From Minisyncoccota bacterium (GTDB taxonomy: Bacteria > Patescibacteriota > Minisyncoccia > Phycocordibacterales > Phycocordibacteraceae): DNA of 57,892 nucleotides. The translations under genes and the position numbers were made by a program. The stretch spans positions 1 to 57,892 of the forward strand of contig JALHPI010000002.1 of assembly GCA_022842585.1 (NCBI GenBank). The letters are read 5' to 3'. Of this stretch, positions 3,062 through 40,478 are shown one piece after another; the stretch's first letter is position 1, and each line of letters starts with the position of its first letter. The notes under the pieces were generated by a model. The model saw nothing but the letters and a program-made list of their open reading frames with translations, had not been told where the DNA came from and ran no database searches.

Positions 3062-3547
3062 GACCCCAACCTCTTTCAGAGCAGCGTCGATTTCAGCATC
3101 TGAAACCTCTTCTACTTCTTCAGGTTCCATCTTTGCGAGGAGTTCGCTCATTTCTGCAGAGTGCTTCGCTTCTTCCTTGGTGGTGCGGATGTCGAGGAAA
3201 CGGAACACGCGCTTGTCTGCACCAATCGTTTCAGCAACTGATGCGTGTCCTGCGCCGGTCGTTTCGTACGCAATCCATGCAAAGAAGCTTGAATCGAAAT
3301 CCCTGCGACCAGTCGTTTCTCCGCGAGAGATGGTGTATGCAAGAGGAATCTTCTGAGGTTCGCCTTCAGCGACGATAGAACCTACTGATTCGATCTTGGC
3401 GCGCATAGCCTGATACACTTTCTTTGCTTCCTCTACCGGAAGTTCGCAGTCAATATGAAAAGCGAGCTCGTATACGCGAGCTTCTGCGTGGTCTGCATCC
3501 ATTTCCTCGGGCATAGCGCCCTCTGCGTCTTTCTTAGCCATAGTCAC
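3059..3547 (-). CDS. rpsF: 30S ribosomal protein S6 (with acidic C-terminal extension)
   Basis: 162 aa, YELAFHID...QKIPLAYTI...FAWIAYE core typical of S6. Part of the rpsF-ssb-rpsR order. Confidence 0.88.
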   Translation of the reverse strand: MTMAKKDAEGAMPEEMDADHAEARVYELAFHIDCELPVEEAKKVYQAMRAKIESVGSIVAEGEPQKIPLAYTISRGETTGRRDFDSSFFAWIAYETTGAGHASVAETIGADKRVFRFLDIRTTKEEAKHSAEMSELLAKMEPEEVEEVSDAEIDAALKEVGV

Positions 3548-3585
3548 GCCATCCTAGCATAGGCCCGTAGGCCCCGCAAACACGC

Positions 3586-4377
3586 CTACCCTAGGCGAAA
3601 TGCTCGTTTGGCATTTGTAAGCAGTGCCTCCCGAATCGTCTCCTCATCCTCTCCCCTGATTACCGCCATAGCCGACACGACAGAGCGGACCGCAAGCGGG
3701 TCGTTCCGCTTCCCGCGATTTGGGGCCGGAGCGACATACGGCGCATCGGTTTCTGAAAGCAGGTTTGCACGTGGGATAAAACGCACAACGTCGTCATAGT
3801 CGTGGGTAAAGGTAAGGACCGCCGTATAGGAAAAGGTGAACCCAAGCTCCAAATAGAGTTTCGTGGTCTCGATGTCACCGACATAAAAATGCATAGTACC
3901 TTGTAGGCGGTCACCATACTTCGCTTTCGCATCTTTTAGCATCTCGTATGCGTCCAGATACGCATCCATTGAGCCCTTTGAAGGGCGGGCATGAATCATC
4001 AGCGGCTTATCAACTTTTGCGGCAAGTTCAATATGGCGAGCAAAGACATCCTTCTGCCGTGCCTTTTCTGCCTCCGGATTCTCCGGTCTGAAGAAGTCGA
4101 GCCCGCACTCCCCTATCGCGACCACTTTCGGATCTTTCGCGAGTGCTTCATAGTACGCATCGTCATACCCCTCCTGCGGTTTGTCGTTCGGGTGGAGCCC
4201 TACGGAGGCGAACAGGGTTTTACCATCCGCATAGTGAACGGCAAGCTTTGAAGTCGTACGGTCGGTACCCACGAGTATCCCGCCCACCTGCGCATCCTGC
4301 ATAGCCGCAAAGACCTCGGCGCGGTCGGCGTCATAGGCATCAAACTGGACATGGCAGTGGGAATCAAAGTAGCGCAT
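3586..4377 (-). CDS. TatD-family metal-dependent hydrolase
   Basis: Internal ATG MRYFDSHCHVQF (HxH motif), GECGLDF, SETDAPY motifs. Confidence 0.9.
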   Translation of the reverse strand: MRYFDSHCHVQFDAYDADRAEVFAAMQDAQVGGILVGTDRTTSKLAVHYADGKTLFASVGLHPNDKPQEGYDDAYYEALAKDPKVVAIGECGLDFFRPENPEAEKARQKDVFARHIELAAKVDKPLMIHARPSKGSMDAYLDAYEMLKDAKAKYGDRLQGTMHFYVGDIETTKLYLELGFTFSYTAVLTFTHDYDDVVRFIPRANLLSETDAPYVAPAPNRGKRNDPLAVRSVVSAMAVIRGEDEETIREALLTNAKRAFRLG

Positions 4378-29323: not shown

Positions 29324-29454
29324 TGGTGCCCAGGAGGGCTCGACCAAGAACATTTCTGCTCGCCGTCGCTCACAGAAATTTCTCGGCCCTGCTCACGCTA
29401 CCGGTTCTGCTGAACCGCTCTACGCGCCCGCTTTCGAGTCCTCTCCTGGTGCCA
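29324..29454 (-). repeat. Family C tRNA-linked structured element (tRNA-Leu(GAG) copy, divergent)
   Basis: Minus strand: TGGCACCAGGAGAGGACTCGAA (17 nt = reverse complement of the tRNA T-loop/T-stem/acceptor), AGCGGGCGCG, GAGCGG-TTC-AGCA-GAA-CCGGTAGCGTG, variable hairpin, then TCGAGCCCTCCTGGGCACCA. Confidence 0.7.
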
Positions 29455-32897: not shown

Positions 32898-33023
32898 AGG
32901 CTTTTAAAAATACACTATTTCGGGTATCTTCTTATCTACAGGGCTGTTTTGTTCAAGCGCTTAGGTTAGTTTGTAGAAACGTCCGCGTTCGTGTACCACA
33001 TAGGTGGAAAGTAGATATTGTTC

Positions 33024-33096
33024 GGGCGCTTAGCTCAGTTGGTAGAGCATCCCGTTTACACCGGGCAGGTCAGAGGTTCGAGTCCTCTAGCGCCCA
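33024..33096 (+). tRNA. tRNA-Val(TAC), no encoded CCA
   Basis: Acceptor GGGCGCT/AGCGCCC, D-arm GCTC-AGTTGGTA-GAGC, anticodon loop TTTACAC, T-arm AGAGG-TTCGAGT-CCTCT. Confidence 0.9.
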
Positions 33097-33103
33097 CAAA
33101 GAC

Positions 33104-33136
33104 GAAAATCCTAGCGTAAGCTAGGATTTTCGCTTT
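33104..33136 (+). terminator. Hairpin + T-run directly after tRNA-Val
   Basis: GAAAATCCTAGC-GTAA-GCTAGGATTTTC followed by GCTTTT. Confidence 0.7.
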
Positions 33137-33263
33137 TGGGCGCTAAGCAAAGCGTGGGGCGCTTTGCGTGAGCTGCGGAGCAGAAAAGTCGCAGGCGGGT
33201 AGCCGAGACGGGGTCGCAGAATTTTCCAGCAAGAAAATATCTGTGACCGGGCCCTAGCGCCCA
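33137..33263 (+). repeat. Family C tRNA-linked structured element (tRNA-Val copy)
   Basis: TGGGCGCTA (reverse complement of the acceptor 3' strand) ... GAGACGGGG, GGTCGCAGA-ATTTTCC-AGCA-AGAAAAT-A-TCTGTGACC ... CTAGCGCCCA (direct copy). Confidence 0.8.
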
Positions 33264-33332
33264 GCCACAAACCGTGACCACAAAAAATGACGACACGACA
33301 AGCGCTTGATCGAGCTCTAGCGCCATCGCGAT

Positions 33333-34568
33333 ATGATTCGGTATACTTTACCTAACCGTATGAACAGTTCCGAGTATCCTCCAAAAGAAAAAGGGTTCGG
33401 GTCGATGGCTCGCCAGTGGATTTTGCGTCCATACGAAAGCACGCGTGCATTCCTTACCGAAACGGAAGACTTTTTCCTTGCCGGGACCCAAATGACGCGG
33501 ACTGGCCCTCCAAGCCTTGAGAATGCGACAAAGCGTTTGTTTGCAACGATGAGCGCTGAGTACCAACGGTTACGCGCAAACGGACTCATAAAAAAGAATC
33601 GCAAAGGCGTCTCAAAAATAGAAGAGCGCGCAAAAAAGGTAGCGAAAGCACGTGAGCAGGTTACGGAAAAATTTGACGCACTCAATGAATTTCTTGACGG
33701 TAGGATTGAAGAGATAAACGAGATACTTGAAGGAGCTTCGGAGCTTATCCCATTCCGGCTCCTCGAAGAGTTTGCGAATATCGACCAGCTCCAGGAAGAG
33801 CTCGATTTCATGCAACAGCACCTACGCACTGAAATGCGCGAACTTGGAGCCGGCAAGTCCTTCCCTATCGCGACCATAGACGCCAACCAGGAAGCATCCC
33901 TTACTGCCATGGACAGTGCGCTCCGCCTCATCAACGAGCTTCGAATGGATGTGTTTGCACGTCACGATGAAATCAAGAAGGCAGAGAAGAAGTTCCGTAA
34001 AGCACAAGCGTCCGCATTTGAAGCTGATATGCGTACCTATAAGCGACAGCAGGCGCTTGATCGCCTCGAATCCCTTCGCCACGGACTCCACCAGGTAATA
34101 TTGAAACGTATTGCGAATAGACGAAAGCTTGGTGAAATATCGCTTCGTATAGAAGAACTTTCCTACGGAAAAAATCCTACGGAAAAACGACGAGAGACAG
34201 AGGTATTCGGTGCGCGGTATTTGAAACAACAACTGCAGGATTTTAAGAAACGGGCTGAGCAATTCGCAGACGCAAAGCAGTTGCATACACGAGTCGCTTC
34301 CGTGCAAGACATTGCCGAGCTCGGACGCCGCCCGCAGGTCTACGATGTAGAGAAATGCGTAGGGGGGTTGGTTTTGAACCCCGGACTTCGCTCCATGCTT
34401 ATGAAAGTTCTCTTCCCTGTTCCGAAAGAGGAGCCGGGGTTCATACCAGCCATACGGTACGGAGCGGTTCACCGCGTACAACTAGAAAGGATGATTGCTG
34501 GTATTGAAGACTTTCTTAACCCGCCAAAAGAAGTTGCAGAAGAACCAGAATTACAAGAACACGTATGA
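33333..34568 (+). CDS. Hypothetical coiled-coil-rich protein (411 aa)
   Basis: Long ORF rich in E/K/R/L/Q, no catalytic motif recognised. Lower GC than its neighbours. The long antisense ORFs are shadows. Confidence 0.6.
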   Translation: MIRYTLPNRMNSSEYPPKEKGFGSMARQWILRPYESTRAFLTETEDFFLAGTQMTRTGPPSLENATKRLFATMSAEYQRLRANGLIKKNRKGVSKIEERAKKVAKAREQVTEKFDALNEFLDGRIEEINEILEGASELIPFRLLEEFANIDQLQEELDFMQQHLRTEMRELGAGKSFPIATIDANQEASLTAMDSALRLINELRMDVFARHDEIKKAEKKFRKAQASAFEADMRTYKRQQALDRLESLRHGLHQVILKRIANRRKLGEISLRIEELSYGKNPTEKRRETEVFGARYLKQQLQDFKKRAEQFADAKQLHTRVASVQDIAELGRRPQVYDVEKCVGGLVLNPGLRSMLMKVLFPVPKEEPGFIPAIRYGAVHRVQLERMIAGIEDFLNPPKEVAEEPELQEHV

Positions 34569-34810
34569 CCACACACGAACTACTTCAACTGTTTCTTGAA
34601 GACCCGGACCTTGCCGTGTACGCGACCGAACCGGAACTCGAGGCACTTGCCTTACGCAATCCGGATGAGGAAGCTTCCCGCGGTGATTTCGAAAAAATAA
34701 ATACGATGTGCGGACGGTTGAACATACAAATGCTCGAACAACTAGATGAACTGGATGAAGCGGATGCGCAACTAATCCAACTGCAAAAAGAAATAGGTGC
34801 GTCAGAATAG
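34565..34810 (+). CDS. Small acidic hypothetical protein (81 aa)
   Basis: ATGA start/stop overlap with the upstream ORF. Followed by a terminator. Confidence 0.55.
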   Translation: MTTHELLQLFLEDPDLAVYATEPELEALALRNPDEEASRGDFEKINTMCGRLNIQMLEQLDELDEADAQLIQLQKEIGASE

Positions 34811-34811
34811 C

Positions 34812-34837
34812 AAAAACCTCCGCACTCCGGAGGTTTT
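34812..34837. terminator. Bidirectional terminator
   Basis: AAAAACCTCCG-CACT-CCGGAGGTTTT. Confidence 0.8.
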
Positions 34838-34841
34838 GCAT

Positions 34842-38746: not shown

Positions 38747-39235
38747 GTGGAAAAGTACAAAAGGAACCCTAACGCCAGATGTTTCGTTTGTAAGAAACCA
38801 ACCTATTGTCGCCCTGCACAGATAAAAGAGAATGGGGGTCGGGTTTTTTGTAGTTCCCGCTGTTACGGAATATCAATCAGAAAAGAGCATCCTTGCGTCG
38901 TATGCAGCAAGCCTATTTTAGCGAGTGCGAATAAAAAAACATGTAGCAGGAGCTGCGCTAACACTCATCGTGCAGGTAATCTTTATAAAACTGGAGCACG
39001 CAAAGATAAAGTTCAGTACCAGAGAGGGCTAAAGATGCGTTTATTGGAAGCTCGGGAACCAGTATGCGAACGATGCGGGTACGATAAATACGAAATCATT
39101 AACGTCCACCATAAAGACCGAAATCGACAGCATAACGATTTTGAAAACCTCGAGTTACTTTGCCCAAATTGCCATGCGGAGGAGCATTACCTTGAAGGTA
39201 ATTGGTACAGTGGTAGGATAGGAAAAAGTACATAA
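38747..39235 (+). CDS. HNH endonuclease with N-terminal CxxC zinc-ribbon repeats (AT-rich), paralog of 28479..28973
   Basis: 162 aa, CFVCKK...FCSSRC, CVVCSK...CSRSC, HNH core INVHHKDRNRQHNDFENLELLCPNCH. Ends 4 nt before tRNA-Ser. Confidence 0.85.
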   Translation: MEKYKRNPNARCFVCKKPTYCRPAQIKENGGRVFCSSRCYGISIRKEHPCVVCSKPILASANKKTCSRSCANTHRAGNLYKTGARKDKVQYQRGLKMRLLEAREPVCERCGYDKYEIINVHHKDRNRQHNDFENLELLCPNCHAEEHYLEGNWYSGRIGKST

Positions 39236-40076: not shown

Positions 40077-40221
40077 GCTCTCGAGCACGCCTGGGAGGCG
40101 TGCATATAGGAATCGAAAGTCGGAGGCCTGTCGAGGCCGAGACGGGGTCGCGGAATTTTCCAGCAGGAAAATATCCGTGACCGATGCGTGCCTCATTCTT
40201 ATGAGGACACTTCCTATCGAG
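40077..40221 (+). repeat. Family C tRNA-linked structured element (tRNA-Arg(GCG) copy)
   Basis: GCTCTCGA[hairpin]...TAGGAATCGAA = reverse complement of the tRNA 3' end. Core GAGACGGGGTCGCGGAATTTTCCAGCAGGAAAATATCCGTGACCGATGCGTG. Ends in TTCCTATCGAG (direct copy). Confidence 0.85.
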
Positions 40222-40343: not shown

Positions 40344-40474
40344 GCTTCTGGCTGGAGTCGAAAGCCGGAAGCGCGTCGGCGCTGAGGCGGGGTCGAGGAA
40401 TTTTCCAGCAGGAAAATATCCGTGACCGATGCGTGCCTGCGGTCTTCGCAGGACACCTCCAGCTGGAAGCACCA
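40344..40474 (+). repeat. Family C tRNA-linked structured element (tRNA-Arg(CCG) copy)
   Basis: GCTTCTGGCTGGAGTCGAA (near reverse complement of the tRNA 3' end) ... same core ... CTCCAGCTGGAAGCACCA (exact 18-nt copy including CCA). Confidence 0.85.
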
Positions 40475-40478
40475 ATAA

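Follow-up and report, generated by a model that had tools for sequence, protein, structure and literature searches.

The DNA analysed here, which we call the window, is a stretch of 57,892 nucleotides from a Minisyncoccota bacterium, a member of the Patescibacteria (GenBank assembly GCA_022842585.1, contig JALHPI010000002.1). Behind an intact tRNA-Val(TAC) gene, and on the same strand, it carries a short non-coding element whose conserved core begins 86 nt 3' of the tRNA and whose copy-specific flanks come from the 3' end of that tRNA, as an original prediction made from the sequence alone had recognized. Here, we find that this Val element belongs to a dispersed family of structured RNA elements, many of which place a common core at a defined T-loop position within a partial second copy of the tRNA gene upstream.

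Every feature that the original prediction listed behind tRNA-Val, from position 33104 to 33324, is present in the sequence (Table 1). The tRNA is followed by a terminator-like hairpin, P0, and by the 5' arm of a closing helix, P1, and the tRNA 3' end, P0 and this arm together make up a long imperfect palindrome (inverted repeat I1, 24 nt, 83% complementary). A simple terminator scan did not call P0, whose 12-bp stem is followed by four T residues as against the five required; the same scan called the equivalent hairpin behind tRNA-Arg(GCG), and similar hairpins stand in most tRNA-linked copies of the element. Two extra hairpins separate the 5' arm from the core of the Val copy: Pd, which is shared with the Arg-GCG copy and has homologues with the same UGGG loop on other stems there and in loci L111 and L005, and P2, absent from the original list, which recalls the hairpin-plus-joiner order of L045, L092 and the 'A2' copies described below. 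P5, by contrast (GAUGCGUGCC..GGACAC), is an extra hairpin of the Arg copies that is missing here, as had been predicted.

The core itself consists of P3, a G-rich joiner and P4. In the Val copy P4 reads GGTCGCAGAATTTTCC-AGCA-AGAAAATATCTGTGACC (33212-33248), with an AGCA loop, a bulged A at 33239 and a G.U wobble, and has an A-U pair in place of the G-C pair of the Arg copies; the deviations of this copy are a P3 loop of 5 nt rather than the usual 4 and a C.A mismatch at the loop-closing pair. On the 3' side, GTGAC is followed by CGGGCC and then by CTAGCGCCCA, such that the repeat comprises only the last 10 nt of the tRNA. Its T-loop/T-stem part is unrecognizable, the T-stem portion having decayed (GGGCC), while the 9-bp complementary arm is present, and P1 is here the acceptor-stem part alone. 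The ACAAA said to follow CTAGCGCCCA is indeed there, but its proposed likeness to the trailer of the real tRNA is weak.

Table 1. Features of the Val element and its surroundings, and the other copies in the window.
Feature	Positions	Strand	Basis
tRNA-Val(TAC), intact	33024..33097	+	ARAGORN; Rfam tRNA model, 69.5 bits
P0, terminator-like hairpin GAAAATCCTAGC-GTAA-GCTAGGATTTTC, 12-bp stem, GTAA loop, then GCTTTT	33104..33137 (stem-loop 33104-33131)	+	sequence
P1 5' arm TGGGCGCTA, complement of TAGCGCCCA	33137..33145	+	sequence; repeat families D2, I3; pairing in minimum-free-energy fold
Pd hairpin GCAAAGCG-TGGGG-CGCTTTGC	33147..33167	+	sequence comparison between copies
P2, small hairpin CTGC-GGA-GCAG, with GTGAG before and AAAAG joiner after	33173..33183	+	predicted fold
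P3, GTC-GCA-GGC-GGGTA-GCC-GA-GAC (outer stem GTC/GAC, internal loop GCA/GA, inner stem GGC/GCC, loop GGGTA)	33188..33209	+	covariance-model alignment; covariation in both stems
GG joiner and P4	33210..33248	+	alignment A4, pair counts; model R1 match
P1 3' arm CTAGCGCCCA, direct copy of tRNA-Val 3' end	33254..33263	+	repeat family D4; fold
Probable remnant of a second, decayed element	33272..33324	+	sequence; repeat families D4, D5; remnant status inferred
Arg-GCG copy: acceptor-like arm, Pd, T-stem-like arm, core (40114-40182), P5, tRNA 3' copy TTCCTATCGAG	40077..40221	+	fold; model R1, 84.6 bits
Arg-CCG copy: minihelix-like P1, core (40359-40427), P5, 20-nt tRNA 3'-end copy CTCCAGCTGGAAGCACCAAT	40344..40476	+	fold; model R1, 80.7 bits
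Leu(GAG) copy, divergent: arm, AAAG, rearranged P3/P4 modules, tRNA 3'-end copy CTCCTGGGCAC	29326..29453	-	repeats; model R1, 19.7 bits, E=0.005

In the predicted fold of each window copy, the element forms a three-way junction in which the closing helix P1 leads through a joiner to P3, a GGGG linker and P4. The core is about 65 nt long and runs from the joiner GAAAG through P3 and GGGG to a P4 that ends in GUGAC; some copies replace GAAAG with extra hairpins followed by AAG or GUGAG. P3 consists of an outer stem of 3 bp and an inner stem, separated by a GNA/GA internal loop and capped by a small loop, which in the family at large is a tetraloop. The consensus of P4 is GUCGCGGA-AUUUUCC-AGCA-GGAAAAU-A-UCCGUGAC, with the bulged A and a constant G.U pair.

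The claim that the Val element is the same as that behind both tRNA-Arg genes is upheld by a 31-mer search with up to three mismatches, which gives three matches as against none in 100 shuffles. The change between these copies in the long stem, proposed to be compensatory, is a replacement of G-C by A-U at alignment columns 9/33; the A-U pair occurs in three sequences, two of them from other organisms (L010 and L028), and one other sequence has G.U. Conservation of the G.U wobble was likewise correctly noted, with 70 of 70 sequences retaining it, though the search patterns partly fixed that position. With about 120 further sequences from other organisms aligned, the paired substitutions hold and are much strengthened. 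In alignment A4, which covers P4 alone in 70 distinct sequences, 95.7% of cells are paired and six pairs have changed on both sides, in 111 cells; none of 500 shuffles reaches the observed values, and slid controls yield at most 8 such cells. In alignment A5, which covers P3 and P4 in 54 sequences of equal length from outside the window, 97% of cells are paired and 13 pairs have changed on both sides, in 167 cells; again none of 500 shuffles reaches these values and slid controls stay at or below 8 cells. P3 pairing was part of the filter by which A5 was selected, which makes P3 100% paired by construction, while the variety of its pair types stays informative: the outer stem alone occurs as GUC/GAC, GCC/GGC, AGC/GCU, GAC/GUC, GGC/GCC, CGC/GCG and ACC/GGU. 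A further alignment with P3 of variable length (A3, made with MAFFT) was staggered and was left out of the pair counts, which rest on the equal-length subset A5.

A covariance model built from the 54 A5 sequences, R1, contains nothing from the window, yet it matches the Val copy end to end (33183-33248) with 64.8 bits and E=3e-14. The same model matches the Arg-GCG and Arg-CCG copies with E=3.9e-19 and E=3.8e-18, respectively, and its scores on reverse strands do not exceed 21.6 bits; all of these E-values are rough, as the model was calibrated in shortened form. Because of these scores, compared with those of the reverse strands, the Val copy is a real member of the family and the fold is strand-specific.

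Many members of the family are linked to tRNA genes. Upstream sequence of 300 nt or more is available for 132 copies. A same-strand tRNA lies within 300 nt upstream of 70 of these, and a single copy has only an opposite-strand tRNA; the linked tRNAs represent 14 isotypes. At 42 distinct tRNA loci, the GUGAC that ends P4 directly abuts a copy of the upstream tRNA starting from T-loop residue C56, and in sub-families with P5 or other 3' additions the copy starts at position 59 or 60. Exact repeats are 18 nt long in the median and 46 nt at most; in 17 loci they extend to the 3' end of the tRNA or beyond it, and at L141 and L078 (Phe) through the trailer and terminator. The core stands in for the first T-loop residues of a second, incomplete copy of the tRNA 3' part. 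At L031 this partial copy, of a tRNA-Ile, extends from the anticodon loop onward, with the core replacing U54-U55, and at L092 one strand of P1 is provided by the 3' end of the real tRNA.

The arm that precedes GAAAG is complementary to the repeat, and P1, which the two form, differs in every copy. Since this complementarity includes even the T-loop residues, the 5' arm is not simply a sense copy of the 5' half of the tRNA. Where the arm departs from perfect complementarity, it does so with ten G.U pairs as against one A.C. The family is also broader than our P4 bait implies, because tRNAs without a recognizable P4 can carry divergent elements: of 122 such bystander tRNAs in the fetched loci, 18 are followed by a repeat of 10 nt or more, and the 12 bystander loci that we inspected, tRNA-Leu(GAG) of the window among them, contain divergent elements with the same order of parts. 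At L105 (94-300) an element lies antisense between 73-nt direct repeats that resemble the 3' two-thirds of 5S rRNA. On our reading of the sequence these look like part of a 5S rRNA gene, for which Rfam makes no call in this truncated locus, and the targets may therefore not be limited to tRNAs.

Within the window, three or four of the nine tRNAs carry an element. The three other copies to which the original prediction referred are those behind tRNA-Arg(GCG) and tRNA-Arg(CCG) and a divergent one behind tRNA-Leu(GAG) on the minus strand. P1 of the Arg-CCG copy has 14 bp, and both of its mismatches are G.U. The Leu(GAG) copy has a 19-nt arm complementary to the 3' part of its tRNA and an 11-nt repeat, and its modules are swapped: a hairpin with an AGCA loop stands at the position of P3, and a GAG-CG-ACGG-CG-AG tip sits on a P4-like stem.

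Beyond the window, we found more than 200 copies in Patescibacteria genomes and metagenomes. An exact pattern for the P4 tip found 112 loci in 185,579 species genomes, of which about 74 have the flanking core and the rest are coincidental matches in coding sequence; a degenerate P4 pattern added at least 120 loci in metagenomes. All core loci with a named lineage are from Patescibacteria, including the Paceibacteria, Saccharibacteria, and the Taylor-, Nomura-, Kaiser-, Yonath-, Zambryski- and Moranii-bacteria groups. Since every copy was gathered with P4 sequence baits, this survey underestimates diversity, and some alignment columns are fixed by the bait. A P4 20-mer has two matches in viral contigs (L113 and L114), of which the one read, L113, is a coincidence in coding sequence.

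The element matches no RNA family catalogued in Rfam. Only tRNAs reach the gathering threshold when the window and 18 related loci are searched with the 4227 models of Rfam 15, with nothing beyond noise at E-values up to 10; these models cover ribozymes, riboswitches, tmRNA, SRP RNA, RNase P RNA, Y RNA-like RNAs, retrons and RNAs associated with insertion sequences (IS). By-eye likenesses to a hammerhead, group II domain V, SRP RNA, conserved regions of RNase P, a K-turn and TPP motifs were dropped, as the defining nucleotides are absent and Rfam gives no support. ARAGORN finds no tmRNA in any of the loci, and a sigma-70 promoter scan near the Val and Arg copies gave nothing useful. We also found no description of the element in the literature on non-coding RNAs of Patescibacteria, tRNA introns, T-loop insertions or genomic islands.

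Two related forms widen the picture. About 40 copies, which we call type B, carry the same P3/P4 tip on a near-perfect, copy-specific closing helix of 25-40 bp, in many cases with a UGA/GAA internal loop. They occupy short spaces between genes, directly against stop codons and in either orientation. Their helices contain 51 G.U as against 9 A.C, counted with a scoring that favored G.U. Examples at L001, L006, L018, L042, L046, L061, L102 and L103, together with about 30 further loci, stand against the stop codons of housekeeping genes (secY/adk, ftsZ, smc, gatB and rpsI). The second form, A2, found in Taylorbacteria-like genomes, has a 12-bp helix followed by UCCA or UCCU, and often lies at contig ends and at the edges of variable regions with XRE-type and restriction-modification genes. 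At L125, two inverted A2 copies with a conserved tail TTTTGGCGAAATTCGGGCTGGTC (1-160 and 3495-3700) flank a 3.3-kb restriction-modification cassette that encodes a 681-aa protein resembling a methylase/restriction fusion, a 314-aa protein and a 70-aa XRE-type controller. At L101 (7172-7932), L004, L048, L050, L055, L067 and L108, some 700 nt of conserved non-coding sequence with a long hairpin (CTCGGTTTTGCGGAAGC...GTTTCCGCAAAACCTCGG) stands before the A2 copies; it has no match in Rfam and may be a larger RNA. In the non-coding sequence downstream of Saccharibacteria-type copies, at L009, L021, L024, L025, L033 and L090, there is a second repeated motif, GTTAGAGTCACCAC...ATCCGAGCGT, with variants.

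Several observations bear on whether these elements spread. Near-identical P3 and P5 sequences occur behind different tRNAs in different assemblies, as between the Arg-CCG copy of the window and L058 (Gly-TCC), and between the Arg-GCG copy and L097, and in both pairs the flanks and P0 are unrelated. Tandem or nested copies occur at L045, L010, L064, L078 and the Val locus. At the last of these, the end-of-P4 motif CCGTGACC recurs after the Val repeat (33272-33279), and the further partial tRNA 3'-end copy that had been noted as CTCTAGCGCC (33315-33324) is real but longer than was claimed, comprising TGATCGAGCTCTAGCGCC (33307-33324) and resembling the tRNA from the T loop onward. To judge from their sequences, 33254-33263 and 33307-33324 are probably the right-hand duplications of two tandem insertions, one of them older and mostly deleted. 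Three composites, at L010 (7545-7830), L064 (tRNA-Val-GAC) and L078 (tRNA-Arg-CCT), stand behind three different tRNAs, yet are near-identical to one another, with two P3 modules, an extra hairpin and two P4-like hairpins; these look like one element nested in another.

We propose that the element is a non-autonomous, duplicative RNA-structured cassette of tRNA transcription units, a reading that we favor on balance and hold with considerable reserve. Such a cassette would be selfish or mobile and would be copied by insertion or recombination. As the segment from C56 on exists twice, the upstream tRNA would stay intact upon insertion. Read-through from the tRNA promoter would provide transcription, the tRNA-like closing helix would give the RNA a stable, tRNA-type end, and the nearly invariant P4 would be a putative binding site for a trans-acting factor. 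The downstream repeat and the tRNA could serve an incoming copy as a pair of homology arms matching that tRNA gene in a recipient cell, so that ordinary recombination in these naturally competent bacteria could install it with no dedicated enzyme. The analysis shows the strand-specific RNA fold, the exact T-loop junction, the tRNA-derived repeats with arms matched to the local tRNA, the scattering of many copies and the place of the Val copy among them; mobility, read-through transcription, processing and the protein partner are putative parts of the proposal. Duplicative spread is favored by three features of the data: the repeats take in non-functional trailer and terminator sequence, one P3/P5 sub-family stands behind different tRNAs, and there are tandem, nested and decayed copies. 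A more specific form of the idea, which we regard as tentative and rather doubtful, is a new class of bacterial mobile element, an enzyme-less cassette that homes into the tRNA T loop and spares the tRNA by duplicating it from C56 on, in which the target copy and its complement would act as a homology arm or guide, or else as a tRNA-mimic/anti-tRNA switch, and P4 would recruit a factor.

A number of points weigh against a mobile cassette. The databases hold no close relative of the window organism that would allow filled and empty sites to be compared, the best homologue of its UppS having 68% identity and lying on a 1.4-kb contig. Between the tRNA and most copies there is a terminator-like hairpin with a U tract, because of which read-through may be rare. 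The extreme conservation of P4 over lineages of class rank, and the presence of elements behind the same tRNAs (Val-TAC, Ile-GAT and Glu) in divergent genomes, would also fit an old function that benefits the host. The proposal does not account for the origin of a 5' arm matched to each new tRNA. Roughly half of the copies have no tRNA beside them, nor do the type B hairpins, and type B occurs in both orientations relative to neighboring genes, a poor fit with simple co-transcription. Finally, part of the P3 pairing in A5 was imposed by the selection filter.

In a different view, the element is a cis-acting RNA switch that serves the host by acting on the maturation or termination of tRNAs. 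Which of two pairings the arm adopts would be decided by a factor bound to the core: with the real tRNA 3' end, the terminator hairpin would be lengthened and access to the acceptor and T arms blocked; with the downstream decoy, P1 would form. We consider this unlikely, but likelier than the alternatives that follow. The sense/antisense/sense order of the parts is typical of attenuators. L010 has a perfect 18-nt antisense of tRNA-Arg(TCG) after an 8-nt loop behind the tRNA, and the palindrome at L078 (Arg-CCT) takes in the CCA end; in many copies, however, the antisense arm measures just 5-12 nt. In agreement with the alternative pairing, the minimum-free-energy fold of tRNA-Val plus its element joins the antisense arm to the 3' strand of the tRNA, whose 5' strand pairs with the distal copy. 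Perfect repeats persist even where they are unpaired in P1, as the switch would have it, but their extension into trailer and terminator resembles a duplication of DNA rather than selected mimicry. The shared strand of element and tRNA (70 copies versus one) and the strong conservation of the core are also on its side; against these stand the roughly half of copies, all of type B included, that have no tRNA partner and sit on unrelated closing helices, and the small share of window tRNAs that have an element at all.

The geometry of the repeats invites comparison with tyrosine integrases. If the element were the footprint of integration in the tRNA T loop, the repeats would be attL and attR, and the inserts of 130-250 nt would be miniature or deleted elements, mobilized in trans and bearing this RNA at their end. 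The direct repeats do begin in the T loop and reach or pass the tRNA 3' end, which is reportedly also the pattern of T-loop-crossing integrases described by Williams in 2002. The tandem arrangement at tRNA-Val, the A2 copies at contig ends and at the borders of variable regions, and the inverted pair around the L125 cassette point the same way. We nonetheless think integration of this kind improbable. There is no integrase in or near any insert; beside the window copies, Pfam finds no integrase domain in the open reading frames (ORFs), the only hit being an HNH domain in an unrelated ORF, and the inserts are too small for a gene. Clustering of 389 neighboring proteins from 74 loci reveals no enriched protein partner or family. 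Nor did we find any kilobase-sized island bounded by an element repeat and a distant tRNA, and 130-250 bp is very small for excision as a circle. The complementary 5' arm, the RNA-type covariation with its G.U pattern, and type B would all be left unexplained.

A self-processing or retro-mobile RNA, akin to a retrozyme or SINE, would explain the asymmetry of the borders. Its 3' end would be cut or set by the three-way junction at GUGAC|C56, and synthesis would be primed by the target at a nick in the T loop, which would yield target duplications of variable length with one fixed border. One border is indeed fixed at the 3' end of the element (C56, or 59 or 60 in sub-families), while the other varies (6-46 nt); the topology is like that of a three-way-junction ribozyme, and the internal segment complementary to the tRNA 3' end is reminiscent of a primer-binding site. 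We find this quite improbable all the same, as no reverse transcriptase lies beside the window copies or is enriched at related loci, as a retron-like system would have, no known ribozyme class matches in sequence even at relaxed thresholds, and copies of one sub-family share no conserved 5' portion of the insert (P0 and trailer), with the result that no RNA unit is delimited.

The possibility, raised with the original prediction, that the region is a decayed second tRNA-Val gene, or that the similarity is due to chance, is the least credible of all and is ruled out as a sufficient explanation by the covariation in P4 and A5 and by the R1 match: although the first 11 nt of the element (the P1 5' arm and two further bases) match the tRNA-Val 5' start GGGCGCTTAGC at 10 of 11 positions in a repeat search and its last 10 nt equal the 3' end, a decayed 5' part of tRNA-Val also lies upstream and the partial tRNA-Ile copy of L031 carries the core, the 110 nt between the two ends have no similarity to tRNA and match a model from other organisms, neither ARAGORN nor the Rfam tRNA model recognizes a cloverleaf at 33137-33263 even at E-values up to 10, the same core, unrelated to tRNA, stands behind 14 isotypes, and the 5' arms of other copies complement T-loop residues as a sense copy of a tRNA would not.

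Taken as a cassette on tRNA transcription units, the element shares features with several known systems and departs from each. Like tRNA-targeting integrative elements such as phages and ICEs, whose attachment sites lie in the T loop or 3' end of tDNA, it stands 3' of an intact tRNA and has behind it a direct repeat that covers the tRNA from the T loop to its 3' end, it can accrete in tandem, and some copies border variable islands; unlike them, its insert is short (130-250 nt), non-coding and free of an integrase, and it has a conserved RNA fold with covariation, an arm complementary to the repeat, and relatives away from tRNAs. Like REP/BIME, ERIC, Correia, RPE and MITE-like repeats, it is short, non-coding, multi-copy, intergenic, often at gene ends, foldable as RNA and without a gene of its own. 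In those families, however, it is the stems or terminal repeats that are conserved, whereas here the tip is conserved and the closing helix is copied from the neighboring gene; the element lacks the conserved terminal inverted repeats and fixed-length target duplication of MITE or IS type, having copy-specific arms and repeats of 6-46 nt, and it is precisely specific to the tRNA T loop.

The closing helix, which in several copies imitates the stack of acceptor and T stems, also brings to mind the tRNA-like domain of tmRNA, YrlA, mascRNA, viral tRNA-like structures and RNase P minihelices. Examples are the 14-bp helix of the Arg-CCG copy, which ends in ACCA, and the 12-bp stem of A2 with its UCCA or UCCU, and the long forms add a hairpin with a D-loop-like UGGG loop. 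The differences are that a junction of about 65 nt replaces the T loop, that the helix copies the neighboring tRNA rather than a fixed sequence, that many copies have a short or non-tRNA helix, and that no Rfam model of those families matches. A foreign segment at a defined T-loop position of a tRNA-derived sequence further resembles archaeal tRNA introns at non-canonical positions, the T loop among them, and disrupted tRNA genes; archaeal tRNA introns are said to have been proposed as mobile by Fujishima et al. in 2010. In our case, what is interrupted is a partial 3' copy behind a complete tRNA, there is no bulge-helix-bulge, the host is a bacterium and no splicing is needed; to our knowledge, the splicing endonuclease is not known from bacteria.

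A large part of bacterial diversity falls to the Patescibacteria, or Candidate Phyla Radiation, whose genomes are tiny and hold little non-coding DNA. An RNA element that is fixed to single nucleotides, present in several copies per genome and found behind a sizeable fraction of tRNAs must in this setting either be of use or spread with unusual success. As a controller or passenger of tRNA maturation, it would add a new layer to the tRNA biology of organisms that are difficult to cultivate; as a mobile element, with its precise T-loop junction, variable duplication and target-matched arms, it would point to a mechanism of insertion with no described counterpart. In practical terms, model R1 can annotate hundreds of 'empty' intergenic regions, the element accounts for some contig breaks, and the partial tRNA copies that it makes can mislead predictors of tRNAs and genomic islands.

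Some further observations concern the neighborhood of the window copies. The original prediction had suggested that tRNA-Val 3' repeats might bracket 33264-34840 in the manner of att sites. The two-gene operon in this interval comes after both extra copies of the tRNA-Val 3' end (33254-33263 and 33307-33324), and no copy lies past its far side, so that the operon is not bracketed by att-like repeats. The operon (33333-34810) encodes proteins of 411 and 81 aa, neither with a Pfam domain, and the 411-aa protein is a true orphan with no homologue among 5.8 billion proteins. In the related lineages of L007 and L017, tRNA-Val and tRNA-Arg(TCT) are adjacent, without the two operon genes. A small HNH endonuclease ORF (38747-39235; Pfam HNH, E=1.3e-6) ends 5 nt before tRNA-Ser(TGA), and we found no link between it and the elements. 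Upstream of tRNA-Val, a decayed copy of the 5' part of the gene (32949-32977, 69 nt before the gene, 83% identical) includes 6 nt of upstream flank, and its sequence suggests an old tandem duplication of tRNA-Val.

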